NCBI GenBank assembly: GCA_029777855.1
Contig: JAKORL010000179.1
Location: 1,356 to 65,355 of the forward strand
Origin: Pseudomonadota bacterium
GTDB lineage: Bacteria; Pseudomonadota; Gammaproteobacteria; JAIEPX01
Length of the DNA stretch: 64,000 nt
Direction: 5' to 3'
Shown here: positions 7-51,473 of the stretch, piece after piece
Layout of the letters: the number at the start of each line of letters is the position of its first letter
How positions within the stretch are numbered: the first letter of the stretch is position 1
Notes under the pieces: generated by a model
What the model was told of the DNA's origin: nothing
The model's input: only the letters and a program-made list of their open reading frames with translations
Database searches by the model: none
Position numbers and translations under genes: made by a program

Positions 7-1407
7 TTGAAAAAAATTGGCAATGAGATATCAAGTGTAATTGCTGATTTGCTAGACGATGTTCCGGAACCATTAAAAAAACGTTTTGGATATTATAATC
101 CACAGCAATGTGTTTACGATTTGTTTACTACGATGGCACTTATAGATCCAGAAAATTTCACATATGAATGTTTGAATGTTTCATGTAGAGGCGAAAAAGA
201 CGGGCAAAAAGGGCGTGTTGAATTAGATAATACAGACAAGTCGCCTGGTAATGTGCTGGTCTTGTCAACCGTTGTTGATCAAGATCGCTTCTATCGTAAT
301 TACATTGAATCTCTACGAAGCCACCCCGTGACCCGTATACAATCACCTCGCTCATCAGGTTTTTTTACGGTTAGACAATTAGAAAATAAAAATCTGACCT
401 CAATCCAATCAGACATTAAAAAGCAATTAGCTGAAAAATTAGAAGCCTTGTTGGGTGAATCAAAAAAAATCGTTTCACAGTTAGATCATATGGATTGTGG
501 GGTAGCATTGAATTTGCACACTATGCATCAAATTTTTTCTAGAATGGTTAATTTGTGTCAAGATAATAATTTTTTTGAATTAGAAGGTGTTCAGAGAAAA
601 TATCGGCGTTTTATACGTGACCTAGAGTTTGTGGCGTGTGAAAATGATCGCAATCGACAAGGGATTCTTTCTGCATTTGGTGAAAAATTTATGGTTGATC
701 TTGATGCACAATTACCCAAACTGAAAATGCACGAAACTGAATTGGTGAGTGATTACGATAAGGTACAAAAATTAAAAAAAGTCTGTGAATATTATTCTGA
801 AAAATCTGAGGATATTAAACTATCGACTGTGTTGTCTAAGGTTGCTCAATTATCTCAAGGTAAACCTGAGGTATATATAATCCGACCAATGCAATCGAGT
901 CATAATGTAGATGAGCTGTGGGTTGCACCATTCATTGACCGTGTGGTAGTACTGTTGACTATCGCCGGTATAAAGGTAATTACTAAAAAAACGCATGCTG
1001 CAGCTGGAACTTCCAAGGTTAAATTTTATAATCTTGCGAGAGAATCGGACTTTGTGTTGATATTTCAAACACCATTATTAAAACAGCAACATGAAAGTAA
1101 TGAATGGGACATTGCGGGAGCGCAATTTATTCATGCAATTAATAAGAAAAATCAAGAGCTCTCAAAAGACCTGCATCGTGTTATCCCTATACGTCTTTGT
1201 GGTATGGAACATGAACAACCACTATTTGGTGCCTGTATTGAAAATAGAGATTGGCCAGAGTTAGGTTTTATTCAAGGATTTATGATTATTCTGGGTGATA
1301 TCTTATTTCAGGGCAGACCAACACCTGAATTTTTGCAACTCTGGACTGAAATTGAACAAGAAGCTGATGACATGAATATTGCCCATGGTAAAACTGGACT
1401 AAAATAA
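7..1407 (+). CDS. Hypothetical protein with C-terminal SEFIR/TIR-like domain. The gene may extend upstream of the window: the first in-frame start is TTG at 7 and there is no upstream stop.
   Basis: 466-aa ORF. The C-terminal ~130 aa (EVYIIRPMQSS...DFVLIFQTPLLKQ...RVIPIRLCG) share a motif pattern with the N-termini of the two NB-ARC proteins downstream (xYxSYAWP, FVLLxGTPSLRxK, RVLPIxLIG). Confidence 0.5.
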   Translation: MKKIGNEISSVIADLLDDVPEPLKKRFGYYNPQQCVYDLFTTMALIDPENFTYECLNVSCRGEKDGQKGRVELDNTDKSPGNVLVLSTVVDQDRFYRNYIESLRSHPVTRIQSPRSSGFFTVRQLENKNLTSIQSDIKKQLAEKLEALLGESKKIVSQLDHMDCGVALNLHTMHQIFSRMVNLCQDNNFFELEGVQRKYRRFIRDLEFVACENDRNRQGILSAFGEKFMVDLDAQLPKLKMHETELVSDYDKVQKLKKVCEYYSEKSEDIKLSTVLSKVAQLSQGKPEVYIIRPMQSSHNVDELWVAPFIDRVVVLLTIAGIKVITKKTHAAAGTSKVKFYNLARESDFVLIFQTPLLKQQHESNEWDIAGAQFIHAINKKNQELSKDLHRVIPIRLCGMEHEQPLFGACIENRDWPELGFIQGFMIILGDILFQGRPTPEFLQLWTEIEQEADDMNIAHGKTGLK

Positions 1408-1545
1408 AGAGGTTTTTTGCCGATACATTTGTTACTGGACTTGAGATGAAAAAACCGTATACCCAGGTTAATCTATTCGACAAAAAACTCATTTTCAATA
1501 TCACATCATATTTTCGAATATGTTGATGTATTTGCAAAATTCGCC

Positions 1546-3402
1546 TCAAATTATGAGTATTGGATTAACACTTAATAGCTCCAGAATAGTAGGATCATTT
1601 GTAAGGTCTGCAGGCCGCTTACCATTTTTATCGAGTGTATGTGGTTGAGCTCCGGCACCCAGCAATAATCTGACACAATCAGTGTAACCTTTGACTACAG
1701 CGCGATGCAATGCAGTTTGACCGGTCGACGGTCCTGGTTGATCTATATCAGTTTTGAGAAAAATTAATAGCTTCAAACTTTCTTTATCGCAACTATTCGC
1801 GCACAATCTTGCTATCTTTGGAAGTTGAGTTTCATCTAGAATATTTTCTGAATAGCGAAGACACACAGCCTTTTTAAAAATCTCAATCAATTCAACATTA
1901 CCACTTCGAAGCAAATAGTCCATTGCGGTGCACTTTTCAATATCAATAATATCAAATTTAGCGTGGTGAGAAAGTAAACACTCGACTTGCGGTGCTCGAT
2001 TTTTTATAACAGCCAAATGTAGTGCCGTATACCCTTTTGTTTTATTTGAGTCTTGTTTATCGATATCTGAATGATGTAATACTAGTACATCTTCCAGCTC
2101 TTTTAATGTACCTAATACTGTTATTCTTCGAATTACCTGCCCCATATCTTGAGACTGTGTAGGCTCTTCATTTGAAAGTGCTGGGGTTGAGGAAAGTTTA
2201 GCTTGAATATTAGCTAGCATCTCAGTGGCTTCCATAGTTTTGGGATGTCTTGGTCCCAAAGTTGTGTTGAACGATTTTATACAATCGAGAAGAATATCAC
2301 ACGCTCTTTTTAAATTATTCAACCCTTTGTAAACATAGGCGAGCATGAATTTAGCAGAAGATATTTCAGGATGACCCTGAGGAAAAAATGATTCGATAAT
2401 TTTAAGATTTTTTTGATAATAGACTTCGGCTTGTGAATAATTTTTTTTACGTAAGTGAATATTGCCAATGCTGCGCAAGGTAGTTGCTATCTCAATATGC
2501 CCAGGTCCGTAGGCAGCCTCTTCGATGTTGAGTGTTTGTAGATAACATTCTAGTGCTTTGTCTAAGTCCCCTTGACAACTATGAACAGTACCAATACTGT
2601 AAATAACCATACCAACTTGACGACTTTGGGGTCCATAATGTTTCACTAAAATTGGCATGGCTCTATTAAATACCCCAAGAGCACGATCAAATTCTTCAAG
2701 ATTTTTATATGCATTACCTAAATTGGAAAGCACATCACCCACTTTAGCAGAATTACTGCCGTACTCTTTCTCGTATATTTGAAGAGCATGGGTCAAATGA
2801 TCTTTTGCGATATGCGGTTGATGCAGTAGTGCGGCACCTAAATTTGTTTCCACAAGTGCATATTCAACATGCTCAGTACCATAAACCCTCTTTAATATTA
2901 CCAAGGCATCTCTGAGATATTTAATTTGTAACTCAGGAAGTTTTAAATAAAAACATGTTGCAGCTAAGCTATTTAACGTTTTTGCAACTTGGGGATGATT
3001 TTCGCCGTGGGCTTTTATGAGAAGTTTTAGGGCTCGCTCGAGTATCTCCCTGGCTTCGTTAGAATGACCTAAAGTATTATAACAACTTGCAATGTTATGC
3101 AATGTAGATGCGATCTGAAAACTATCCTTCCCATATGCATGTTCTAAGATCTTTAATGCACGTGAATGCAATTCAAAGGCCTTTTTTGTCTCTCCAGATG
3201 AAAAATGTGCGTTCCCACAGTTACTCAGTTGGTAAGCAACATTTACATGAAATTTCCCAAATTTTTTTTCAAGAATATCTAAGGCTTTTTGATGAAAACG
3301 CTTTGCTAGATCATAATTGCCTAGATCAAGATGACAGCACCCTATATTTGTAAAAATGGCTTCAAACTTTCCAGGACTTTCGCCATATTTTTTTTTCTTC
3401 AC
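1546..3402 (-). CDS. TPR-repeat plus ankyrin-repeat protein. It is probably the C-terminal portion of the upstream NB-ARC-TPR gene, separated from it by a frameshift at an A9 tract.
   Basis: 617 aa with many TPR_12-type repeats (YAxxLxNLGxxYxxxGxxxxAxxxxxxAL) and C-terminal ankyrin repeats (GYTALHLAV..., GQTALHRAV...). It starts at GTG and overlaps the upstream ORF by 41 nt across a T9/A9 homopolymer. Confidence 0.6.
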   Translation of the reverse strand: MKKKKYGESPGKFEAIFTNIGCCHLDLGNYDLAKRFHQKALDILEKKFGKFHVNVAYQLSNCGNAHFSSGETKKAFELHSRALKILEHAYGKDSFQIASTLHNIASCYNTLGHSNEAREILERALKLLIKAHGENHPQVAKTLNSLAATCFYLKLPELQIKYLRDALVILKRVYGTEHVEYALVETNLGAALLHQPHIAKDHLTHALQIYEKEYGSNSAKVGDVLSNLGNAYKNLEEFDRALGVFNRAMPILVKHYGPQSRQVGMVIYSIGTVHSCQGDLDKALECYLQTLNIEEAAYGPGHIEIATTLRSIGNIHLRKKNYSQAEVYYQKNLKIIESFFPQGHPEISSAKFMLAYVYKGLNNLKRACDILLDCIKSFNTTLGPRHPKTMEATEMLANIQAKLSSTPALSNEEPTQSQDMGQVIRRITVLGTLKELEDVLVLHHSDIDKQDSNKTKGYTALHLAVIKNRAPQVECLLSHHAKFDIIDIEKCTAMDYLLRSGNVELIEIFKKAVCLRYSENILDETQLPKIARLCANSCDKESLKLLIFLKTDIDQPGPSTGQTALHRAVVKGYTDCVRLLLGAGAQPHTLDKNGKRPADLTNDPTILELLSVNPILII

Positions 3403-6400
3403 TTTTCAGTAGTTTCTCCAGAATATCTAGCGCCTTACCAGGTTCAGCTAAACTCAAATAGTTATTCGCTAGAGCAAAATTAATTTCAGTAATATTGTGC
3501 TGATTTTCTGCTTTGGAAGCCTCTATAGTTTTGTAGGTATTAATAAGCAATTTTTTGGCACGTTCAATGTCTCCAAGAGAGTTATAAGTGTCGGCAAGGC
3601 GGATAGCCGTTTTGATCACAGTTGTATTACTCTCACCAAAGGCTAATTTTTGTATTCCCAAAACCCTTTCATATCTTTCTTTTGCTTTTTCAAATTCACC
3701 GATATCTTCGCTGACATTAGCAAGAAGGAATAATGCTTCCGTAACTTTAATATGATGCGGCCCATATTTTTTTTCTACAAGCTCGAGAGCTAACAACAAT
3801 TGTTTTTCAGCGTCGTTATATTCACCGAGATCTGAAAGTGTTTCACCTAATTTGTGTAATAGCTCTAGACGTTTTGGGCTGTCAATGGTCAGCAGGGATT
3901 TACTAGATTCTATCGCACTATTGATATATTTTTTTGCAGAAAGAGAGTCTCCATCCTCTATAGCCAGAGAGGACAAATTAAGCTCATTATATATAACAGA
4001 TAAGTGAGCTTTGCCATAAAATTTGAGATTGATTCTATAGGATTCCTCTATTAAAGATTTAGCTAATTTCAGCTTGCCTAGTTTGAGAAAAGCACCGCCG
4101 AGCCCATTAAGTGTACTTGCAACCAATGGATGCTCTTCGCCATAAGTAGCTTTTTTAATTGCTAGAGCGCGTTCTAGAAAACGTATTCCTGTTAGTAAGT
4201 CATTTTGCTGACAATAAACATTTCCTAAATTATTGAGTATGTTAACAATTTGAATATTATCATCTCCGTAGAGTATTTCGGCCATTCTTAGTGCTTCTTC
4301 TAGAAAGTGTTTTGCTGCCTCTAGTTGACCGCCTACTCTATTGAGCGATCCTAGTGTACATAATACGGTACAAATACTAGATGGGGGGGTATCGGATTGA
4401 TTCTTGAATAGTTGATATGCGGTATTTAATAATTCTGTTGCTCTGTCATAATCATCGACATTCATGCAACTCAAGGACATATTATGTAGAATTTCGGCTT
4501 TTACAGGTAGTAGTGTGTCATCCGAGTTTATTATAGGGAGGATGCTTTCATACAGGCTGAGTTCCTTTAGGCTTTCTCCTAGTAGACTGTAAGTTGAAGC
4601 TAACATCACTTTTAAAGGTACTAAGAAATGAATTTTGATATCATTTTGATCCTTGCCATATTTCTCAAACAAACGAATACATTCTTGAAGATGAGGAAGA
4701 AGCCTTTTTTTTCTTGTCTCATTACGCAGTGGATTCTCAGTATAGAAAAAATGATGCATGATAACTATTCTTATGGCTTTTAAATAATCAACAGATTGAT
4801 CGATACTGTCAGATGCTCTTAAGATCTCTCTGATTAAATTATGGACCTCGATATGGTTTTCGATGGACGCGTTTTTAAGAAGGCCATAACGTCTTAATTC
4901 TCTTATTGCTTTGTCGCCAGAGAATGGATCTTGTGTAAAACAGTATAGCATCATCACATCAATAGGAACTTCAGAAGCGAGATAAGCACAAGCGTGGAAT
5001 ACTTGTTTGCAAGTATCACCTTTCAGTTTAGACAATGCTAACTGCACAGTGGTCCATACAGTTACTTGATGTGATGTAAAATCAGAGTGGGCGCTTTTTT
5101 CTTTAACATAAGGATCATTTATTGAAGGTATATCCAGTAAGCTTTGCTTTTTAACGTCGAATTCACAAATAAAATCTTTTATGCTTAGCGCATTTTCACA
5201 TATGTACGACAGAGCTTGTGTCAATGCCAATGGAAAGCGCCCTAATATCTCGACTAAGTTAACGATATTATCGTCCTCATCAAACAAAGACCCGTTTCTT
5301 TTTAAAAATTTTCGTGCATAAGCGACAGCATCTTCTAGTGTAAATACAGATAATATCACGGGATCAAATTCCGTAGGCCAATCATTTTGATTTGAGTTTC
5401 TTGTAGTGATTAATATATGAAAAGCTTTGTCATTTGGCAAAAATGGTGTAATGGGTTTTATTTTAAGAACATTATCAAACACTACTAAACACTTTCCGTC
5501 CCTTTGAGCGAGCTTCTTGTATACCTGTTGGTATAGATCATCACCTGTAAAGATCTCAGTATCAATTCTAAGTTGTTTGGCAAGTGTTGAAAATTGAATA
5601 GCTAACAAACCTGTTGAATTATGAAAATCATCGGTCCCGGCGTGGAACCATATGACACTACTATAACCAGATTGAGATGTAATTTGATTAATTGCTCGTT
5701 GACGATTTGCAAACATAGAAGCTAATACTGTTTTTCCCACGCCACCACTGCCACTGATATTTTTTCCTTGGCTGATAACTACCATGCTTTGATTTTCGAA
5801 TTTAGATAGTTTATTTAACTCAGCTTCTCGACCAGTAAAATCTTCAAATGGAAGTGGTAATTGAAAGCTACCATTAAAGCTTTCATTTTGAGAAACGGGT
5901 GAACTTTCAGATTGATTACTTAACTTGAGGTACAAAATCTCGTTTGATCGTTGCGTCTTGACATGTTTGTAAGATGTTAATTGCTCCAATTGACTTTGTT
6001 GTTCGGCAAAGTAGAGAGCTATCCTACTTTTATCCGGTGATCCAAGGGTACTTGGGTTGATAGAGTATCTCTTTAGATGTTCTGATTCAGATTCCCAGCA
6101 TTCCTCATATTCCTCCATACTAATGGCAGCAGAAAGTAATTGTGATAGGATACGTTTGAGTTGAAAGATGTAACTGTCATCTCTCCAGTCCCCTGCTACG
6201 GTAAATTCTTGTTGATACGCTGAAAATGTATCCAAGGGTGTGCCAATCAAGCGAAAAGGAATTACTTGCTGAAGAACTTGGTGTTGTGAAAGTTTATCTA
6301 TTCTCCAATAGGGATCTGATAATTTATCACGTAAAGAAGGTGTACCAGTCAGCAAGACAAATTGACATTTATCAGCCTCATTTGTGAAATCGGTTATGAG

Positions 6401-7078
6401 TTGATTTTCGTTATCTAATATATCAATTACGGAATGAATACCCGCGCTTCTTAGGTGTTGATGCACTTGAGATAAAAAAGCTTGAATATTTGATTCTTGT
6501 AATCTGAATCGTGGACTTGGCCAAGCATAGCTTAAATAACATGAAATTCTTATGTCATTTTTCTCTAAATGTTTTTTTATCTTAGATAATATAGTCCTTA
6601 ATGCTCCGTTGGCTAAGTCGTCACTCATGAATAGCACAAATTGGTGCATAAATTGGTCAGTTTTTTTCTGGTATTCCTCAAATCTTAAACTTCCGAAAGT
6701 AATCTGCTCATCGACTGGAATTAAACAATGATGAATTTTTTCACTAAGAGTCCTTGTTAGTTCTTCATGAATATCAGAAGAAAGACCATCTATCTCTCCA
6801 ATCGTTGCAATAAACCTGTTGGCCTGCTCAAGTTGATTACGCAAGGTAATAAAGTCGATTTGATCACTAAAAGAGCTTTTTGTGGTATTCAGTATATTAA
6901 GTATATATTGTAAATGAATGTTAATTTCTAAGTAGCAAGTCTTGTTAGAATGGCTGAATGATTTTTGGTATTCTTTGATTTCAGCAACGACCTCTATCAA
7001 CCGTTTATTAGCTTCCGCAGAATTTTTTTCATATAAACTCTGGACTTCAATTTCATGATATGAAACAGTCGATTTCAT
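3362..7078 (-). CDS. STAND NTPase: SEFIR/TIR-like N-terminal domain, NB-ARC ATPase, C-terminal TPR repeats
   Basis: 1238 aa. Motifs: P-loop SGSGGVGKT, Walker B CLVVFDNV, hhhhTTR (ILITTRN), GxP-like GRFPLALTQAL, then many kinesin-light-chain-type TPRs. The N-terminus carries CYLSYAWPS...FVLLTGTPSLRDK...QVIPFRLIG. Confidence 0.7.
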   Translation of the reverse strand: MKSTVSYHEIEVQSLYEKNSAEANKRLIEVVAEIKEYQKSFSHSNKTCYLEINIHLQYILNILNTTKSSFSDQIDFITLRNQLEQANRFIATIGEIDGLSSDIHEELTRTLSEKIHHCLIPVDEQITFGSLRFEEYQKKTDQFMHQFVLFMSDDLANGALRTILSKIKKHLEKNDIRISCYLSYAWPSPRFRLQESNIQAFLSQVHQHLRSAGIHSVIDILDNENQLITDFTNEADKCQFVLLTGTPSLRDKLSDPYWRIDKLSQHQVLQQVIPFRLIGTPLDTFSAYQQEFTVAGDWRDDSYIFQLKRILSQLLSAAISMEEYEECWESESEHLKRYSINPSTLGSPDKSRIALYFAEQQSQLEQLTSYKHVKTQRSNEILYLKLSNQSESSPVSQNESFNGSFQLPLPFEDFTGREAELNKLSKFENQSMVVISQGKNISGSGGVGKTVLASMFANRQRAINQITSQSGYSSVIWFHAGTDDFHNSTGLLAIQFSTLAKQLRIDTEIFTGDDLYQQVYKKLAQRDGKCLVVFDNVLKIKPITPFLPNDKAFHILITTRNSNQNDWPTEFDPVILSVFTLEDAVAYARKFLKRNGSLFDEDDNIVNLVEILGRFPLALTQALSYICENALSIKDFICEFDVKKQSLLDIPSINDPYVKEKSAHSDFTSHQVTVWTTVQLALSKLKGDTCKQVFHACAYLASEVPIDVMMLYCFTQDPFSGDKAIRELRRYGLLKNASIENHIEVHNLIREILRASDSIDQSVDYLKAIRIVIMHHFFYTENPLRNETRKKRLLPHLQECIRLFEKYGKDQNDIKIHFLVPLKVMLASTYSLLGESLKELSLYESILPIINSDDTLLPVKAEILHNMSLSCMNVDDYDRATELLNTAYQLFKNQSDTPPSSICTVLCTLGSLNRVGGQLEAAKHFLEEALRMAEILYGDDNIQIVNILNNLGNVYCQQNDLLTGIRFLERALAIKKATYGEEHPLVASTLNGLGGAFLKLGKLKLAKSLIEESYRINLKFYGKAHLSVIYNELNLSSLAIEDGDSLSAKKYINSAIESSKSLLTIDSPKRLELLHKLGETLSDLGEYNDAEKQLLLALELVEKKYGPHHIKVTEALFLLANVSEDIGEFEKAKERYERVLGIQKLAFGESNTTVIKTAIRLADTYNSLGDIERAKKLLINTYKTIEASKAENQHNITEINFALANNYLSLAEPGKALDILEKLLKSEEKKIWRKSWKV

Positions 7079-7155
7079 TTTCCGTTCCCCCTATTAATGC
7101 CAGTTTCTCTAAGTGCAATGAGTGCGCATGTTAATTAAAAATACCTCAATCAGCA

Positions 7156-9291
7156 TTATTTATTCAAATTTTCCGGTTGAGCGCATGATTCTGAGGTTAT
7201 CGCATACGCATGATTATGTCTCTTTTCGCTCGAAGATACGTGAAAACCTTGTTGGGTCATCAAAGTACCTTGCGCTGATTCAGCGTGTTTAATTTGTAAA
7301 TACCTGTCTGCAAAGGTTTTCGCAATAGGGAGATGGCTTTGTTGCGATGTTTCACAAAATAGTTGATAAAAGACAATTTTTAAGACCCTATTTATAGAGA
7401 TTGTCTCCGTTTTGCAGGATGCCACAACGATGCCAGACTTTAATAATTCAGTTAACTGTTCTTGGATTGGCTCATTGGGTAGTGATTTTCTTAATATCGT
7501 TAAATCGAGCGTTTCAAAGTTTGGAATTAATATACAAACTGATAATAGTGTTTTTGCTTGTGGTGACAGTCTGGAGAATATGGATTTAAGTACGCCATGT
7601 AAAGTGGCGCTTATAGGTTGATATAATTCATGTTCGTTGTTTTTTTCTAATTTATAGGGGTCATTTGAAAATAGTTTTGTTGAATATATCTTGTCTGGTG
7701 AATTGGTTAAGAGTGAGAGATACGAAGGAATTGTTTTGTTATTGTTCAGTATATAAGCAAGTGCTTGTGATAGCATCAGTGGATATCGTCCACATGTAGT
7801 GGCTAATTCTTTAATATCATGAGTCGAATATTGAGATTGGGGTTTTTTATTTTCTAGGAAACTACTGATATATCTAACCGCAGTCTCAAGTAAGAAATTA
7901 TCTAATAATAATAGATCAAATTGCTCACGCCATTCTGCTGATAAAGAATTTCGCGTCGTTAACAGTACGCTAAAACATTCATTATTGGGTGGCATAAAGG
8001 GCGATAGTTGTGATGGGCCATGAACATTGTCGAATACGATTAGGCATTTTCCGCGAAAGCCTAATTTTTCGTAAACGTATTGATAGACTTCATTATCACT
8101 TGTTGCGCGTACAGTATCCATTTCGAGTGAATTGGCGAGTTTGATAAATTGGCGCCGCAACAACTTTGGAGTATCTTCAGGATTTTCAGAGCCAGCTAAC
8201 ATCCAAATTACGTTTTTAAAATTTTTACTGGCTTCAGTCAGGTCTTCGTCCGTAATCATTTTTAGGTACATAGCAACGAGTTGAGTTTTTCCTATGCCCG
8301 GGAACCCTGTGATGCATACCCCCAATTTTTTATTTTGCAACGTGTTATTTAGCATGGTGTCAATTTGAGAAAGCTCAATCTGCCTACCAGTAAAAAAGTG
8401 ACTGACACGAGGTAGTTGAAAACTCCCATGAAAAGCAACATGTGTTGGTGGTAATCCTTGTCTTTCTTTCAGTAAAATTTTGCGGCAAACAGACTCCAGA
8501 TGCCTCTCTTTGTGTAGATATGACAATCTTGCGTCAGTACAGTTGATACTAATGCATTGTTTAAAAAACAGTTTTACTTTGGGTATGTGGTCTTCTAATT
8601 TCTCGGGCGTTAGTGAATGAGGGAATTGTTCCTTAAACGATGACCATAACTTGTTATACTCATGGCTGGGGTGTTTTTGAAAATAAATATCGCTTAATAA
8701 ATTTTGTAGTTGTGCAAGGTACTCTCCAGCGCACCAATCAATAACTTCTATATTCTCGAAAATGGATATAAAACTGTCGACTATTGCACCTATTAATATG
8801 ATGGGTAAAACTCGGTGTTGAGATGTAAGAGTATCTCGATGCTGTTTAGAAATAGTATTTGCCATAACTATTTTTTCAGGATTCCAATAGGGATCCTCAT
8901 GTTTTGAACGTAGTGAAGGTGTGCCAAACAGTAGGACAAAGTCAGTATCATTTGCCATAGAAGAAAAAGAGTAAATATCGTCGGTATCACGGTAGTTAAT
9001 AAGATCTAAAATTGGGTATATGCCAGCAAGTTTTAAATGAGCGTGGAGATTAATTAAGAATGGTTGCACCAATGATTCAGTTTCAGAATTACTCTCTATT
9101 GGCCAAGCATAGCTCATGTAACATCTGTAACCAGGTTTAGGAACGCCTTTTAGACGAGCGATATTTATCAGTAGCTCCTCAAAAGAGGATTTCATTTTCT
9201 CATTCATCATGAGACAAGCTTGTTGATACATCGTAATCGATATGTCAGAGAACTTTATATTCATGGCAATGACTCCTTGATATAACTTCAA
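7156..9291 (-). CDS. STAND NTPase: SEFIR/TIR-like N-terminal domain plus NB-ARC ATPase, with no C-terminal repeats. Paralog of 3362..7078.
   Basis: 711 aa. Motifs: P-loop GFPGIGKTQL, Walker B CLIVFDNV, VLLTTRN, GRYPLMLSQALAYI. The N-terminus carries YRCYMSYAWPIE...FVLLFGTPSLRSKHEDPYW...RVLPIILIG. Confidence 0.7.
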   Translation of the reverse strand: MKLYQGVIAMNIKFSDISITMYQQACLMMNEKMKSSFEELLINIARLKGVPKPGYRCYMSYAWPIESNSETESLVQPFLINLHAHLKLAGIYPILDLINYRDTDDIYSFSSMANDTDFVLLFGTPSLRSKHEDPYWNPEKIVMANTISKQHRDTLTSQHRVLPIILIGAIVDSFISIFENIEVIDWCAGEYLAQLQNLLSDIYFQKHPSHEYNKLWSSFKEQFPHSLTPEKLEDHIPKVKLFFKQCISINCTDARLSYLHKERHLESVCRKILLKERQGLPPTHVAFHGSFQLPRVSHFFTGRQIELSQIDTMLNNTLQNKKLGVCITGFPGIGKTQLVAMYLKMITDEDLTEASKNFKNVIWMLAGSENPEDTPKLLRRQFIKLANSLEMDTVRATSDNEVYQYVYEKLGFRGKCLIVFDNVHGPSQLSPFMPPNNECFSVLLTTRNSLSAEWREQFDLLLLDNFLLETAVRYISSFLENKKPQSQYSTHDIKELATTCGRYPLMLSQALAYILNNNKTIPSYLSLLTNSPDKIYSTKLFSNDPYKLEKNNEHELYQPISATLHGVLKSIFSRLSPQAKTLLSVCILIPNFETLDLTILRKSLPNEPIQEQLTELLKSGIVVASCKTETISINRVLKIVFYQLFCETSQQSHLPIAKTFADRYLQIKHAESAQGTLMTQQGFHVSSSEKRHNHAYAITSESCAQPENLNK

Positions 9292-9470
9292 ATTCCCGGG
9301 CCGAATATCTGTGTTAAAATTTCAACATATAGTTAGCATCTTATGCAAGTTACTTGCTATTATGAAAATAGTCAAATTACTTTTCTTGTGGGCATATATG
9401 TGGTATGTAATTATCATGCTTGTATATAATTTTGGGTAATCAATGGATTTTTGATAAGAAGGTAGAGAAA

Positions 9471-21937: not shown

Positions 21938-22564
21938 ATGAAACAGAGTTTAAAGAAGATTATAAAAGGTTATCACGTCTTTCGTAAAAAATATGCACAC
22001 GGAAATCGATCTGTCATGCGTGTATTATCCATGTATGGTCAAGAGCCTAAAGTGATGGTTATCGCTTGTTGCGATTCTCGAGTTGACCCCGCTTTGATAT
22101 TACAATGTGATCCAGGGGACCTTTTTGTTGTGAGAAATATCGCAAATATCGTGCCGCCTTATGAAAAAGATAAAGCCCACCATGGTACTAGTGCGGCGCT
22201 TGAGTTTGGAATCACCGTCTTAGAAGTCAAACATCTTATATTGCTGGGGCATAGTCAATGCGGTGGTATGCAGGCCCTGATGGACAAACGAACGGCAACC
22301 GAATACGACTTTATTAACAATTGGGTCTCAATTATTGATGCCCCTGTTACAGCACTTGAAAGTGTAGATGATTGTGCGAAATATGCATTAAATGAATCTT
22401 ATCAACATTGTCTTACTTTTCCATGGATTGCAGATCGAGTTGCCAAAAATGAATTGAATATTCATCAATGGTTTTTTGATATTTCAAAAGGACAAATCTA
22501 TACCTACTCACTCGATGAGAAAGTTTACAAACCACTCGAAGAATACGAGCTGCCTAAAAAATAA
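21938..22564 (+). CDS. Beta-class carbonic anhydrase
   Basis: Zinc ligands CCDSRVDP and HSQCGG. A strong RBS aaaggagg lies upstream. Transcribed divergently from sulP. Confidence 0.85.
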   Translation: MKQSLKKIIKGYHVFRKKYAHGNRSVMRVLSMYGQEPKVMVIACCDSRVDPALILQCDPGDLFVVRNIANIVPPYEKDKAHHGTSAALEFGITVLEVKHLILLGHSQCGGMQALMDKRTATEYDFINNWVSIIDAPVTALESVDDCAKYALNESYQHCLTFPWIADRVAKNELNIHQWFFDISKGQIYTYSLDEKVYKPLEEYELPKK

Positions 22565-45092: not shown

Positions 45093-47105
45093 TTGATTAT
45101 GCATAATCACCATAATGCGGAGCATCACATGAATCACCTTCAAATGGGGCATGGATGCCACGCCGGAATGGCAGGTGATTTTAAAAAACGTTTTTGGATC
45201 TCGATAGTCTTAACAATACCCGTCTTAATTCTGTCGCCTATAGTTCAAAAATTTATTTTATTAGGGAAGACATTTGCTTTTAACGGAGACAGCTCAGTTG
45301 TTTTTGTTTTATCTACTGTGATTTATTTTTATGGTGGTTGGCCATTTCTCAAAGGTTTTTATGATGAATTGATTGAGCACAAGCCTGGCATGATGGTTTT
45401 GATTGCCGTAGCCATTTCGGTAGCATACTTTTATAGCACAATGATTGTTTTTGGTCTTTCAGGCATGTCATTTTTTTGGGAGCTTGCAACATTAATAGAT
45501 ATTATGTTGTTGGGGCATTGGATTGAAATGAAATCAGTTATGGGTGCAGGTACTGCCCTTGAAAAGCTGGTGCGATTATTGCCAGCGGTTGCCCATAAAA
45601 TAATGCCTGACAGTACGATCAAAGATGTGCTTTTGAGTCAATTAACGATGGGTGATCATGTCTTGATCAAGCCAGGAGAAAAAATTCCTGGGGATGGGAT
45701 TGTGTTAGAAGGTAAAACAAGTGTTAACGAATCGATGCTAACAGGCGAGTCTCGGCCGGTTGCAAAACTAGTTGGTGCCCAGGTCATCGGTGGTTCTATT
45801 AATGGGGAAGGTGCAATCACAATTGAGATAAAAAAAATCGGCATGGGTTCTTTTCTTTCGCAAGTGATCGAACTCGTGAGACAAGCTCAAGAGAGTAAAT
45901 CAAAAACACAAGATTTGGCTAATCGCGCCGCCAAGTGGCTTACTTTAATTGCTTTGGGTGGAGGTGCTTTAACATTACTGATATGGATATTATTACAGCA
46001 ATCATTTTCTTTTGCTTTAGAGCGTACAGTCACTGTGATGGTGATTACCTGTCCTCATGCGCTTGGTTTGGCTGTTCCTCTAGTTGTTGCTATATCAACT
46101 GCGATTGCTGCTTCGCATGGTTTGTTAATACGAAATCGTTCCGCATTTGAAACCGCGCGTAATATCGATGCAATTGTATTTGATAAAACAGGGACATTAA
46201 CAGAAGGAAAATTTGGCATAACCGATGTATTGATTTTCGATAAAAATTTAAATCAAGATGAATTGGTGAATTATGCTGCGGCAGTTGAGGCGAATTCTGA
46301 GCATTCAATAGCAAAAGGAATTGTGAATTCAAAGAAAAGCGTACTTAAAGTCGAAAATTTTAGAGCCATACCTGGAAAAGGAGCTCAAGGAAATGTCGAT
46401 AATAAAGAAGTTAAAATTGTTAGCCCGGGATATCTACGTGATGAAAATATACATTTAAATAAAGAAGATGAAACGCATATTATCAATTTAAGTCAGCAAG
46501 GAAAAACAGTTGTATTTGTCATGATAGATAATGAATTAAAAGGCGCAATTGCACTGGCTGATATTATTCGGCCAGAATCAATGGAAGCAATTAAACAACT
46601 AAAGTCAATGAATATCCGCTGTATAATGTTAACTGGGGATAATAAGCAAGTGGCTAAATGGGTTGCTGAATCATTGGGGCTTGATGAGTATTTCGCAGAA
46701 GTGCTTCCTCAAGATAAAGTCAATAAAATAAAAGAAGTTCAGGGGAGAGGATTGATTGTCGGAATGACTGGCGATGGTGTAAACGATGCACCCGCTTTAG
46801 CACAAGCCAATGTGGGGATTGCAATTGGTGCAGGTACAGATGTCGCTATTGAGACAGCTGATATCATATTGGTTAAAAGCAATCCACTGGATGTTGTTGC
46901 GATCATCACACTTGCTCGAGCCACAACCCGTAAAATGATTCAAAATCTTCTATGGGCAACAGGATATAATGTCATCACTATACCTGTAGCAGCAGGTGTA
47001 TTGTTTCATTATGGTATTGTACTATCACCAGCAGTCGGGGCTGTTTTAATGTCTCTTAGTACAGTTATAGTGGCGATTAATGCTAAAATGCTCCGTTTAG
47101 CATGA
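45093..47105 (+). CDS. P1B-type heavy-metal-translocating ATPase (CPH-type, CopB-like) with His-rich N-terminus
   Basis: N-terminus HNHHNAEHHMNHLQMGHGCH. TM6 CPH motif. DKTGTLT. TGDN. GDGVNDAP. Confidence 0.9.
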   Translation: MIMHNHHNAEHHMNHLQMGHGCHAGMAGDFKKRFWISIVLTIPVLILSPIVQKFILLGKTFAFNGDSSVVFVLSTVIYFYGGWPFLKGFYDELIEHKPGMMVLIAVAISVAYFYSTMIVFGLSGMSFFWELATLIDIMLLGHWIEMKSVMGAGTALEKLVRLLPAVAHKIMPDSTIKDVLLSQLTMGDHVLIKPGEKIPGDGIVLEGKTSVNESMLTGESRPVAKLVGAQVIGGSINGEGAITIEIKKIGMGSFLSQVIELVRQAQESKSKTQDLANRAAKWLTLIALGGGALTLLIWILLQQSFSFALERTVTVMVITCPHALGLAVPLVVAISTAIAASHGLLIRNRSAFETARNIDAIVFDKTGTLTEGKFGITDVLIFDKNLNQDELVNYAAAVEANSEHSIAKGIVNSKKSVLKVENFRAIPGKGAQGNVDNKEVKIVSPGYLRDENIHLNKEDETHIINLSQQGKTVVFVMIDNELKGAIALADIIRPESMEAIKQLKSMNIRCIMLTGDNKQVAKWVAESLGLDEYFAEVLPQDKVNKIKEVQGRGLIVGMTGDGVNDAPALAQANVGIAIGAGTDVAIETADIILVKSNPLDVVAIITLARATTRKMIQNLLWATGYNVITIPVAAGVLFHYGIVLSPAVGAVLMSLSTVIVAINAKMLRLA

Positions 47106-47124: not shown

Positions 47125-49449
47125 ATGAAACACTGGAAGTTTATGAATTTAAAAGTTCGATTATTTGCCTGCCTTGTGCTTACATTAACTATTTTCACTC
47201 AAAATGCATTTGCTGCCGATCGGATCATCGATTTAGTAGTAGGATATAAAAAAGTAAATTTCGCTGGAAAAGAAAGGTTGGCTATGTCCGTGAACAATGA
47301 GATACCAGCGCCAACATTAAAATTTAAGCAAGGAGATCATGTTCAAATTAATGTCTATAATCATCTCGATAAAGAAACCGCTATCCATTGGCATGGCATT
47401 ATTCTACCATGGCAGATGGACGGAGTCTTAGGCGTTAGTCAACAAGGAATTCCTCCAGGGGGCGTTTTCCATTATCGATTTACACTGAATCAAGCGGGGA
47501 CTTATTGGTATCACGCACACGCCGGATTGCAAGAGCAAGAAGGGTTGTATGGCGCTTTTGTTATCGACCCTCGGACGCCCAGCCAATATCATGCAGACAA
47601 GGATTTTGCCGTAGTATTATCTGATTGGAGTAATACGCCTTCAGATCAAATTCTGGCTAATCTAAAAAAATCAGGCGATTACTACGAATCTCTATTTCCT
47701 TTGCAGCCATCTTTAATAAAATTTTTGCATGATTATCAATGCGCTTCAAAAAAAGAAAAAGAAATGCTGTTATCAGATTATAACATGATGCAACAAATGC
47801 GAATGAGTGTTTATGATTACAGTGACGTAGCGTACGATGCTTATTTGCTGAATGGGCATACAAAGTTTTCTCCCTGGACAGCACCTGTTAAAGTTGGTGA
47901 TATTGTACGATTGAGATTTGTTGGTGCTGCGGGTAGCACCATTTATCGCGTTAAAATACCAGAATCTAAAATGAGGGTTATTCACGTGCAAGGTAATGAT
48001 GTGAAACCATACGAGATAAATGATTTCACAATCGCACCAGGCGAAACTGTGGACGTCTTAGTAAAAATTCAAAAAAAAACCCCTACTATAATTTATGCTG
48101 AATCGAATGATACACGAGGTTCAGCTATTGGAGCATTAATAACCGACACTAATAAAAAAATTAATATTAGCTCGGTTCAGCCATTCAAAGAGCCTTTGCC
48201 TATTTCACGAACCATGATGAAAACAATGATGGAAGGTATGTCACATAATATGCCTATGGATATGCCCACTGAGTCGACAATTGTGGGTGATGAAATGTCC
48301 CGAAAAAGTGTTTCATCTAAAACAACTCACAATACTCAGTATGAAAAAGTAGTCGCCAAAGAGAAAACAAACGATCCTTATAAACCCATAGACAGAGTGA
48401 TAAAAATGGAATTATTCGGTTATATGGATCGATTTATTTGGTTTATTAATGGTGTTCCCGAGTTTAATGCTAAACCTATTGTTTTTGAGCCTGGAAAGCG
48501 ATATCGATTCATCTTTATTAACACTTCCATGATGAGCCATCCCATGCATTTTCATGGACATTGGTTCATTTTCAGAAATGGTCATGGCGAATATGATCCG
48601 TTGTTACACACTATTAATATTCCACCCGGCGCTACTGTTGCTGCAGATGTTGATGCAGATGTGAGTGGTCAGTGGCTATTTCATTGTCATTTGCTTTATC
48701 ATATGATGAGCGGAATGGCACGTGTATTTCAGTATTCAACGTTACTTGATGTTGTAAAGCATAAAAATACACCACAAAAAAGTATCATAAGTTCTCATTA
48801 TATCAACCGACCAATAGTGCATGTTGATGAAATTCGACCTATTAATATTGATCAAGTGAATCATCCAATGCCACATTTAATGAAAACCAGTTTTTCGACA
48901 AATTTAGATGTGGGTGTGAATCCCTTACGCAAGGTGCAAAAATGGGGTTTAAAAGGCCTCTATGGATCTGATTATCACAAACTCGAATTATATACTAATG
49001 ATGCTGAAATTAATAATGGGAAGATAGAAAATGCGGATATCGATTTATTTTATTGGCATTTAATCTATCAATTTTGGGCCATAAAAGGAGGCTTGAATTA
49101 TACGATTAAACCGACAAATACCCCTTATCTTCAAATGGGAATAGGTATAGAAGGAATGATGCCCTATTTTATCGGAACCGATTTGAGAGCATATTATCAT
49201 TCGGGGGTGTTAAAAATTGATTTTGAATTATCTCGAGATACTCAACTGACTAACAATTTTTTCTTACGCACCGCAGTACGAACTATCTTAGAATCGGGAC
49301 TCGATCAGGTGCGATATATTATCCGGCCATATTATCGCTTGAAACCTGGAATTGATATATTTGTCGAATATGAACATGAAAAGGATTATGGCCATTCATC
49401 TGCCAAGTCAACTTTAACCGGCGGTGTATCTTTTGGTGTCGCATCTTGA
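47125..49449 (+). CDS. Multicopper oxidase (CopA-type) fused to a C-terminal CopB-like copper-resistance outer-membrane domain
   Basis: Signal peptide. MCO motifs HWHGIILP and HCHLLYHMMSGM. Met-rich segment MMKTMMEGMSHNMPMDMP. The C-terminal ~230 aa resemble the CopB family (FYWHLIYQFWAIKGGLNY...GGVSFGVAS). Confidence 0.7.
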   Translation: MKHWKFMNLKVRLFACLVLTLTIFTQNAFAADRIIDLVVGYKKVNFAGKERLAMSVNNEIPAPTLKFKQGDHVQINVYNHLDKETAIHWHGIILPWQMDGVLGVSQQGIPPGGVFHYRFTLNQAGTYWYHAHAGLQEQEGLYGAFVIDPRTPSQYHADKDFAVVLSDWSNTPSDQILANLKKSGDYYESLFPLQPSLIKFLHDYQCASKKEKEMLLSDYNMMQQMRMSVYDYSDVAYDAYLLNGHTKFSPWTAPVKVGDIVRLRFVGAAGSTIYRVKIPESKMRVIHVQGNDVKPYEINDFTIAPGETVDVLVKIQKKTPTIIYAESNDTRGSAIGALITDTNKKINISSVQPFKEPLPISRTMMKTMMEGMSHNMPMDMPTESTIVGDEMSRKSVSSKTTHNTQYEKVVAKEKTNDPYKPIDRVIKMELFGYMDRFIWFINGVPEFNAKPIVFEPGKRYRFIFINTSMMSHPMHFHGHWFIFRNGHGEYDPLLHTINIPPGATVAADVDADVSGQWLFHCHLLYHMMSGMARVFQYSTLLDVVKHKNTPQKSIISSHYINRPIVHVDEIRPINIDQVNHPMPHLMKTSFSTNLDVGVNPLRKVQKWGLKGLYGSDYHKLELYTNDAEINNGKIENADIDLFYWHLIYQFWAIKGGLNYTIKPTNTPYLQMGIGIEGMMPYFIGTDLRAYYHSGVLKIDFELSRDTQLTNNFFLRTAVRTILESGLDQVRYIIRPYYRLKPGIDIFVEYEHEKDYGHSSAKSTLTGGVSFGVAS

Positions 49450-50994: not shown

Positions 50995-51441
50995 ATGCGC
51001 GTTTTGCTGCAAAGAGTAAAGCAGGCTCGGGTCACTGTAGATTCGAAAATAATCGGTGACATCGGGTCTGGCTTGTTGCTATTGATTGGCATTAGTCATG
51101 ATGATAACGAGGTCTGTGTTGATCAAATGGCTGAGAAAATTGTGAATTTGAGAATTTTCGAAGATGAGAATGAAAAAATGAATCTTTCTGCGTTGGATGT
51201 AGAAGCAGAAATTTTGGTAGTATCCCAGTTTACATTGTATGCCGACACAAGTAATGGTCGCCGACCGGGCTTTAGTCTTGCTGCGAAACCGGAGTATGCT
51301 GAACCTTTGATTCATTATTGGGTTAATGCATTACACAAGCTGGGAATTACAAAAGTGGCCACAGGTGAATTTGGTGCCCATATGGAAGTGGAGTTAGTCA
51401 ATGATGGGCCAGTGACCATTATGTTGGAAAGTGATGTTTGA
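50995..51441 (+). CDS. dtd: D-aminoacyl-tRNA deacylase
   Basis: MRVLLQRV...ARV. GLLLLIGISHDD. The conserved SQFTL motif and the C-terminal MEVELVNDGPVT. Confidence 0.9.
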   Translation: MRVLLQRVKQARVTVDSKIIGDIGSGLLLLIGISHDDNEVCVDQMAEKIVNLRIFEDENEKMNLSALDVEAEILVVSQFTLYADTSNGRRPGFSLAAKPEYAEPLIHYWVNALHKLGITKVATGEFGAHMEVELVNDGPVTIMLESDV

Positions 51442-51473
51442 ACACTGAGTGATCTTACAATAAGGCAGGGAAA

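Follow-up and report, generated by a model that had tools for sequence, protein, structure and literature searches.

The stretch analysed here is a window of 64,000 nucleotides (nt) from a gammaproteobacterium (Pseudomonadota bacterium, assembly GCA_029777855.1, contig JAKORL010000179.1, positions 1,356 to 65,355 of the forward strand), and all positions below are those of the window. On the minus strand, two overlapping open reading frames (ORFs) lie one behind the other: ORF1 of 1238 residues, with NB-ARC and TPR domains, and ORF2 of 618 residues, with TPR and ankyrin repeats. The overlap contains a run of nine A on the coding strand (A9; T9 on the plus strand). We regard it as very probable that the two ORFs are one gene coding for an NLR-like protein of 1843 residues, the frame of which is broken in this record by a non-programmed slippage of one A at the homopolymer, either in the DNA or in the consensus. 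An independent assembly of the same clone shows the unity of the gene, the position of the frameshift and an intact allele with eight A (A8).

Reading frames and the intact allele

The coding strand around the A9 tract reads GTGAAGAAAAAAAAATATGG. In the codons of ORF1, the minus strand runs here from CTG AAA AGT through GAA GAA AAA AAA ATA TGG and CGA AAG TCC TGG to AAA GTT TGA. The two ORFs share 41 nt (3362..3402) including the stop codon of ORF1, and the A9 run is crossed by both frames, as an earlier inspection of the letters and ORFs of the window (the sequence-only reading) had described correctly. Relative to ORF1, ORF2 is read in the +1 frame. It begins at GTG 3400-3402, which abuts the tract, and its product starts MKKKKYGESPGKFEAIF; an in-frame TGA (3406-3408) is located one codon ahead of this GTG.

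When one A was removed from the tract in silico, a single open frame of 1843 residues resulted, and when two were added (A11), the open frame had 1844 residues. In the A8 fusion, residues 1-1230 of ORF1 are joined to ORF2 from Tyr6. The junction peptide is SEEKKYGESPGK in the full-length protein, whereas the truncated form reads SEEKKIWR. The last eight codons of ORF1 (IWRKSWKV) and the TGA at 3362-3364 correspond to out-of-frame read-through past the extra A. The sequence-only reading had expected the loss of two C-terminal residues of ORF1, a joining from the second residue of ORF2 and a fusion of about 1850 residues; these three details are replaced by the loss of eight residues, the joining at Tyr6 and the length of 1843 residues.

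According to an exact-sequence cluster look-up, the 1238-residue product held at NCBI (P0001) has a single other member in its 90% cluster, a protein of 1843 residues (P0017). P0017 was derived from the Logan short-read assembly of the Sequence Read Archive run SRR15686344, and it is identical, residue for residue, to the in silico A8 fusion over 1843 residues. The proposal that a one-base slip fuses both ORFs is borne out by this protein. The contig of P0017 (locus L002) was aligned with the window from 17078 to 1284, and over 15,795 columns the alignment has no mismatch and a single gap. The sole gap lies in the tract: the contig has GAAG-A8-TATGG, and the window has GAAG-A9-TATGG. The sequence-only reading had suggested a comparison of A8, A9 and A10 alleles among related strains, and the A8 allele is the one present in this independent assembly of the clone. 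As the gene is intact there, the split in the window corresponds to a one-base expansion of an A8 tract.

Five additional contigs of the same run (L083, L086, L085, L084 and L087) extend the comparison, and the contigs of the run together tile the window from 1284 to 56059 (54.8 kb). Besides A8/A9, only one difference was detected in the 54.8 kb, a synonymous single-nucleotide polymorphism (SNP) at 22024. At this position the window has A and the Logan assembly has G, giving GTA or GTG (Val) in a beta-carbonic-anhydrase-like ORF (21938..22564). The SNP suggests real micro-diversity between the sources of the two assemblies. All ten other A/T runs of at least 8 nt in the compared stretch are concordant between the assemblies. 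Two of them are further A9 runs, each within an ORF that is intact, one in mnmE (19521) and one in a Cu-oxidase/CopB ORF (48071).

The A9 run itself is not unusual for a sequence of 37% G+C. Under a first-order Markov model, 6.6±2.4 A/T runs of at least 9 nt are expected in the window and 4 were observed; for runs of at least 8 nt, 17.9±4.2 are expected and 16 were observed. The two frames can be fused by a 1-nt indel only within the interval 3365..3405, which is bounded by the ORF2-frame TGA (3406-3408) on one side and by the stop codon of ORF1 (3362-3364) on the other. The probability that a run of at least 9 nt falls inside this 41-nt fusable interval is about 0.003, and the placement of such a run in the sole fusable interval is not chance.

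Table 1. Positions of the split gene, its homopolymer tracts and the adjoining features in the window
Feature	Position	Strand	Description
Whole gene	1546..7078	-	TIR-like domain, NB-ARC, about 17 TPR units of 42 aa, ankyrin repeats; 1843 aa at A8, frameshifted in this record
ORF1	3362..7078	-	1238 aa, 5' two-thirds of the gene; ends EEKKIWRKSWKV before the stop
ORF2	1546..3402	-	618 aa, 3' third of the gene; 10 TPR units and ankyrin repeats (ANK)
A9 homopolymer of the coding strand (T9 on +)	3388..3396	-	Site where the assemblies differ by one base (A9 in the window, A8 in the Logan contig of SRR15686344)
Sister A8 tract (GAA AAA AAA T)	3767..3774	-	V-E-K-K-Y-G, equivalent position in the upstream TPR unit; same in both assemblies
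Sister A8 tract (GAA AAA AAA T)	3262..3269	-	L-E-K-K-F-G, equivalent position in the next TPR unit; same in both assemblies
Upstream tandem paralogue	7156..9291	-	711 aa; same N-terminal TIR-like domain and NB-ARC, without TPR or ANK
Accessory island part	9420..15853		HAD hydrolase, rve_3 transposase remnant (about 10682..10951), 1589-aa ANK-NACHT protein (11084..15853)

Repeat register, homologues and gene product

The fused protein was arranged in units of 42 residues, and an exact TPR_12-type register was found from about residue 905 to about residue 1618. Positions 30-34 of the units carry the motif [EK]-K-[YF]-G. The unit at the junction is INFALANNYLSLAEPGKALDILEKLLKSEEKKYGESPGKFEA in the A8 frame, and the register is continuous there, in agreement with the earlier statement that the TPR run is unbroken over the junction. 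The A8 tract codes for E-K-K of the recurrent E-K-K-[Y/F]-G motif, and the native junction is read GAA GAA AAA AAA TAT (E-E-K-K-Y). In the A9 frame, Y-G is changed to I-W, the stop follows, and the TPR register is destroyed. As judged from the codons and the repeat register, the native frame is that of A8.

In the window, AAA makes up 80% of the Lys codons and GAA makes up 75% of the Glu codons. The A8 tract is therefore a by-product of the E-K-K motif and the codon bias. Upkeep of the tract beyond composition and codon usage was not seen in the window: the runs of at least 9 nt are no more numerous than the model expects, and the two sister tracts are invariant. Five of the 16 A/T runs of at least 8 nt in the window lie inside this 5.5-kb gene (2441-2448, 3262-3269, 3388-3396, 3767-3774 and 4705-4712; binomial P=0.009). 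The enrichment arises because the E-K-K motif is repeated; three of the five runs are GAA AAA AAA T for E-K-K-[YF]-G at the matching position of the 42-residue TPR unit. Several latent frameshift sites are thus carried by the gene.

The nearest homologues show 33-36% identity. These are P0002 (1439 residues), P0003 (1355 residues) and a paralogue in the related locus L001 (1390 residues). All three have NB-ARC and TPR in one chain, and two of the three also have ANK.

According to Pfam, ORF1 consists of NB-ARC and TPR_12/TPR_10, and ORF2 consists of TPR_12/TPR_10 and ankyrin repeats. The NB-ARC match has 31.7 bits (cut-off 23.5; E=1.2e-7), and the protein contains the Walker A sequence GSGGVGKT. 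The repeat matches are strong, with TPR_12 at E=3.7e-45 in ORF1 and E=2.9e-59 in ORF2, and Ank_2 at E=2.9e-16. The N-terminal domain gives a sub-threshold Pfam match to TIR_2 (E=0.019). An AlphaFold2 model of residues about 123-337 (predicted local distance difference test score, pLDDT, 77) was compared with the PDB, and the best matches are the TIR domains of RRS1, RPS4, Roq1, SARM1 and BtTir (E=8.5e-4; TM score 0.68-0.70 normalised to the target). The sequence-only reading had called this domain SEFIR-like. No Pfam SEFIR match was obtained and the fold search favours TIR domains, and the SEFIR label was dropped; on the predicted model, the domain looks TIR-like rather than specifically SEFIR-like. 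With a TIR-like domain, NB-ARC, TPR and ANK in this order, the gene product is therefore an NLR-like STAND NTPase.

NB-ARC-TPR and NACHT-ANK proteins of this kind are described for fungi and bacteria in the available text of earlier reports (PMC4986451; bioRxiv 10.1101/2020.01.06.895854), and Avs/AVAST systems in that of another (PMC12931631). As far as those texts go, the protein resembles them in its N-terminal effector-like domain (here a predicted TIR-like fold), its NB-ARC NTPase and its C-terminal TPR_12-type repeats, and also in the clustering of the gene with paralogues and a NACHT-ANK gene; it differs in the extra C-terminal ankyrin module, and its NTPase and effector parts have no PADLOC match. 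PADLOC gave only generic matches to the TPR and ANK regions, leaving the NTPase and N-terminal parts unmatched, and the 711-residue and NACHT-ANK neighbours had no matches. Membership in the known anti-phage STAND systems (Avs/AVAST, bNACHT) was rejected, as no specific PADLOC defence model was matched.

Origin of the extra A

The native tract is A8, and the extra A in this record shifts the frame so that translation ends eight codons later, the 3' third of the gene being left as an apparent ORF of 618 residues. The extra A is probably a non-programmed length change by polymerase slippage at the homopolymer. Its source may be the bacterial DNA, where it would be a truncating allele of recent origin or a polymorphism within the population, or it may have entered the consensus during sequencing or assembly. 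If it is in the DNA, the A9 allele would yield mainly a truncated product of TIR, NB-ARC and seven TPR units, with little or no separate product of ORF2. The phenomenon, a homopolymer frameshift that splits one gene, is already known and ordinary. Gene splits at homopolymer tracts, including errors, recent pseudogenes and slipped-strand variants, are covered in the available text of a survey of prokaryotic genomes by GeneTack-type analyses (PMC3711429), and frameshifts at A/T runs were discussed by Baranov et al. 2005 (PMC1088944). The locus shares with such split genes the overlapping ORFs of one strand in different frames, the single homologous protein, the A/T run of 8-9 nt and the in-frame allele. 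Nothing essential differs; the tract is generated here by the recurrent E-K-K-[YF]-G motif of the TPR units.

Several points weigh against this interpretation or limit it. The locus is known from two independent assembled sequences, one with A8 and one with A9. The junction falls in TPR units that are missing from the distant homologues, and the ancestral state is therefore taken from the allele of the same clone and from the repeat register. An orthologue above 36% identity was not found in genome_contigs or in the JGI metagenomes; the former was searched with a four-sequence alignment, and the latter with a DNA pattern of the junction allowing 6-12 tract bases. Neither the junction pattern nor a scan with P0017 gave a match. 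As to the origin of the base, homopolymers are the commonest place for residual consensus errors, which counts against certainty of a real variant. The record is concordant at its other homopolymers and is not generally error-prone, which counts against a plain artefact.

That the cells carry A8, and that a homopolymer miscall or an error of polishing or assembly put the extra A into the deposited consensus alone, is quite possible, though we hold it rather doubtful. Homopolymers of 8-9 nt are a classic site of residual indel errors. The independent assembly of the same clone, with A8 and the intact ORF, is consistent with such an error, and no second split gene is evident across the 64-kb window. 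The concordance of the ten other runs, among them the two A9 runs within ORFs, argues the other way, and the record therefore does not look prone to homopolymer errors. A consensus error is an unlikely cause of the synonymous substitution between the assemblies, which points instead to real micro-diversity. Because the assemblies also differ by this genuine-looking SNP, we lean slightly towards a real DNA variant over a consensus error.

Short contigs 100% identical to the window at 51201..52789 (loci L088 and L089) occur in the runs SRR30350712 and SRR31893847, and the clone therefore recurs in independent datasets. Exact look-ups of P0001 and P0003 yielded no recorded location, and those of three large ORFs had no result, probably owing to differing start calls or to breaks between contigs.

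Phase-variable contingency loci with homopolymeric tracts are known from Neisseria, Haemophilus, Campylobacter and Helicobacter. An evolved switch of this type, in which a reversible change between A8 and A9 either silences the full-length NLR-like protein or replaces it by a truncated TIR-NB-ARC-short-TPR form, is unlikely here. The likeness to the contingency loci is that a one-base change of tract length toggles the frame between near-identical genomes (1 SNP in 54.8 kb). The location of the gene in an accessory NLR-like island, which the nearest metagenome-assembled genomes (MAGs) lack within 10 kb of yidC, and the share of the long A/T runs of the window that falls in this gene are also consistent with a switch. 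The differences are that the tract is short, that E-K-K in preferred codons at a recurring TPR motif explains it fully, and that it is found 67% of the way into the gene, not near its start. Furthermore, the sister tracts at 3262 and 3767 are invariant, long A/T runs in the window are at or slightly below chance, and each tract length has been seen once.

Programmed recoding would make the A9 run functional, with the full-length protein arising from slippage during transcription or from a ribosomal frameshift at the A run; we consider it very improbable. Nine A/T is the length at which slippage of RNA polymerase turns efficient in many bacteria, and Thermus dnaX and Shigella mxiE make use of it (PMC1088944). 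The A9 tract reaches this criterion for slippery runs (at least 9 A/T), and A AAA AAA is a slippery heptamer. The locus resembles the transcriptional-slippage genes (Thermus thermophilus dnaX, Shigella mxiE, IS elements; PMC1088944) in having A9 on the sense strand where the frames join. However, in those genes both the run and the two-frame arrangement are conserved from strain to strain, whereas an in-frame A8 is found here in the same clone, and conservation of the frameshifted state already breaks down within this clone. To restore the frame, the RNA would have to lose 1 nt or gain 2 nt, or the ribosome would have to shift by +1 or -2. Genome-wide, transcript slippage at A/T runs is overwhelmingly a +1 insertion and deletions are rare (PMC5574713), and the RNA change required here (-1 or +2 nt) is in the disfavoured, rarer direction. 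A -1 ribosomal shift would lead to the third frame, with a stop after about 17 codons, not to ORF2. The 111 nt downstream (3290-3400, minus strand) fold at -15.4 kcal/mol, as compared with a shuffle mean of -19.2 kcal/mol (z=+1.22). A -1 ribosomal frameshift was rejected on the direction of the frame together with the lack of downstream structure beyond that of the shuffles. In genome_contigs and in the scans of the JGI metagenomes, no orthologue carrying a comparable tract was found. Of the mechanisms listed in the sequence-only reading, two are retained, namely an error in sequencing and a genuine frameshift or slipped-strand variation in length, and programmed frameshifting has become unlikely.

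Genuine gene fission, with ORF1 and ORF2 as two functional and translationally coupled genes, has the GTG start at 3402, a GGAG 13 nt upstream and an ORF overlap of the kind often seen in coupled genes on its side, and is nevertheless hardly credible: the break falls in the middle of a 42-residue TPR unit and destroys the K-Y-G motif, the GTG abuts the tract with an in-frame stop one codon earlier, the GGAG spacing is poor for a ribosome-binding site, an intact allele exists, and all homologues found are single chains. No promoter-like or terminator-like sites were found between the ORFs, the counts over 1200..7400 being at the shuffle level, and an internal promoter or terminator separating ORF1 and ORF2 was rejected accordingly.

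Surroundings of the gene and significance

The single gene of 1843 residues, split in this record by one A, starts 77 nt from its tandem paralogue of 711 residues. In the related locus L001, three paralogues are arranged in tandem. The gene is located in an island together with this paralogue, the NACHT-ANK gene of 1589 residues and the transposase remnant (Table 1), and rnpA-yidC-mnmE follows immediately downstream of the island. According to YidC, the nearest relatives are gammaproteobacterial MAGs with 72-87% identity, and the next is Pseudomonas with about 48%. The nearest MAG relatives (L003-L006) share the synteny rnpA-yidC-mnmE-sulP, and no homologues of the island genes were found within 10 kb of yidC in them.

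Other ORFs of the window were also noted. At 52495..63983 on the minus strand, four consecutive large ORFs (1298, 900, 840 and 773 residues) without Pfam match are tandem paralogues. The first three show 54-64% identity over the N-terminal ~570 residues or more, and the ORF of 773 residues shows 23-49% identity to the middle and C-terminal parts of its paralogues of 1298, 900 and 840 residues. The Cu-oxidase/CopB ORF (47125..49449, plus strand; 774 residues) has multicopper-oxidase domains and CopB; its in-frame A9 spans 48071-48079 and is the same in both assemblies, and a P-type ATPase (45093..47105, plus strand) adjoins it. At the edge of the window, an ORF of 466 residues without family match (7..1407, plus strand; noted together with L001 2114..3466) is 55% identical to the C-terminal part of a protein of 1123 residues in L001. 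The L001 protein has an inosine-uridine nucleoside hydrolase domain, and the 5' part of the 466-residue ORF may be cut by the window edge.

For annotation, the locus should be given as one frameshifted gene, or corrected to A8, and not as an NB-ARC-TPR protein of 1238 residues and a separate TPR-ankyrin protein. If left uncorrected, surveys of domain architecture in bacterial NLR-like proteins would score a false gene fission. The case illustrates how a recurrent E-K-K-[YF]-G motif in AT-rich preferred codons seeds a TPR gene with slippage-prone A8 tracts. If both tract lengths were to occur side by side in appreciable proportions, the locus would count as a candidate for phase variation in an NLR-like gene. 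A phase switch, if true, would toggle between the full-length TIR-like-NB-ARC-TPR-ANK receptor and a form with a truncated sensor, possibly with a free TPR-ANK fragment, and a bacterial NLR of an uncultured gammaproteobacterium would then be under stochastic control, either ON/OFF or by altered specificity.

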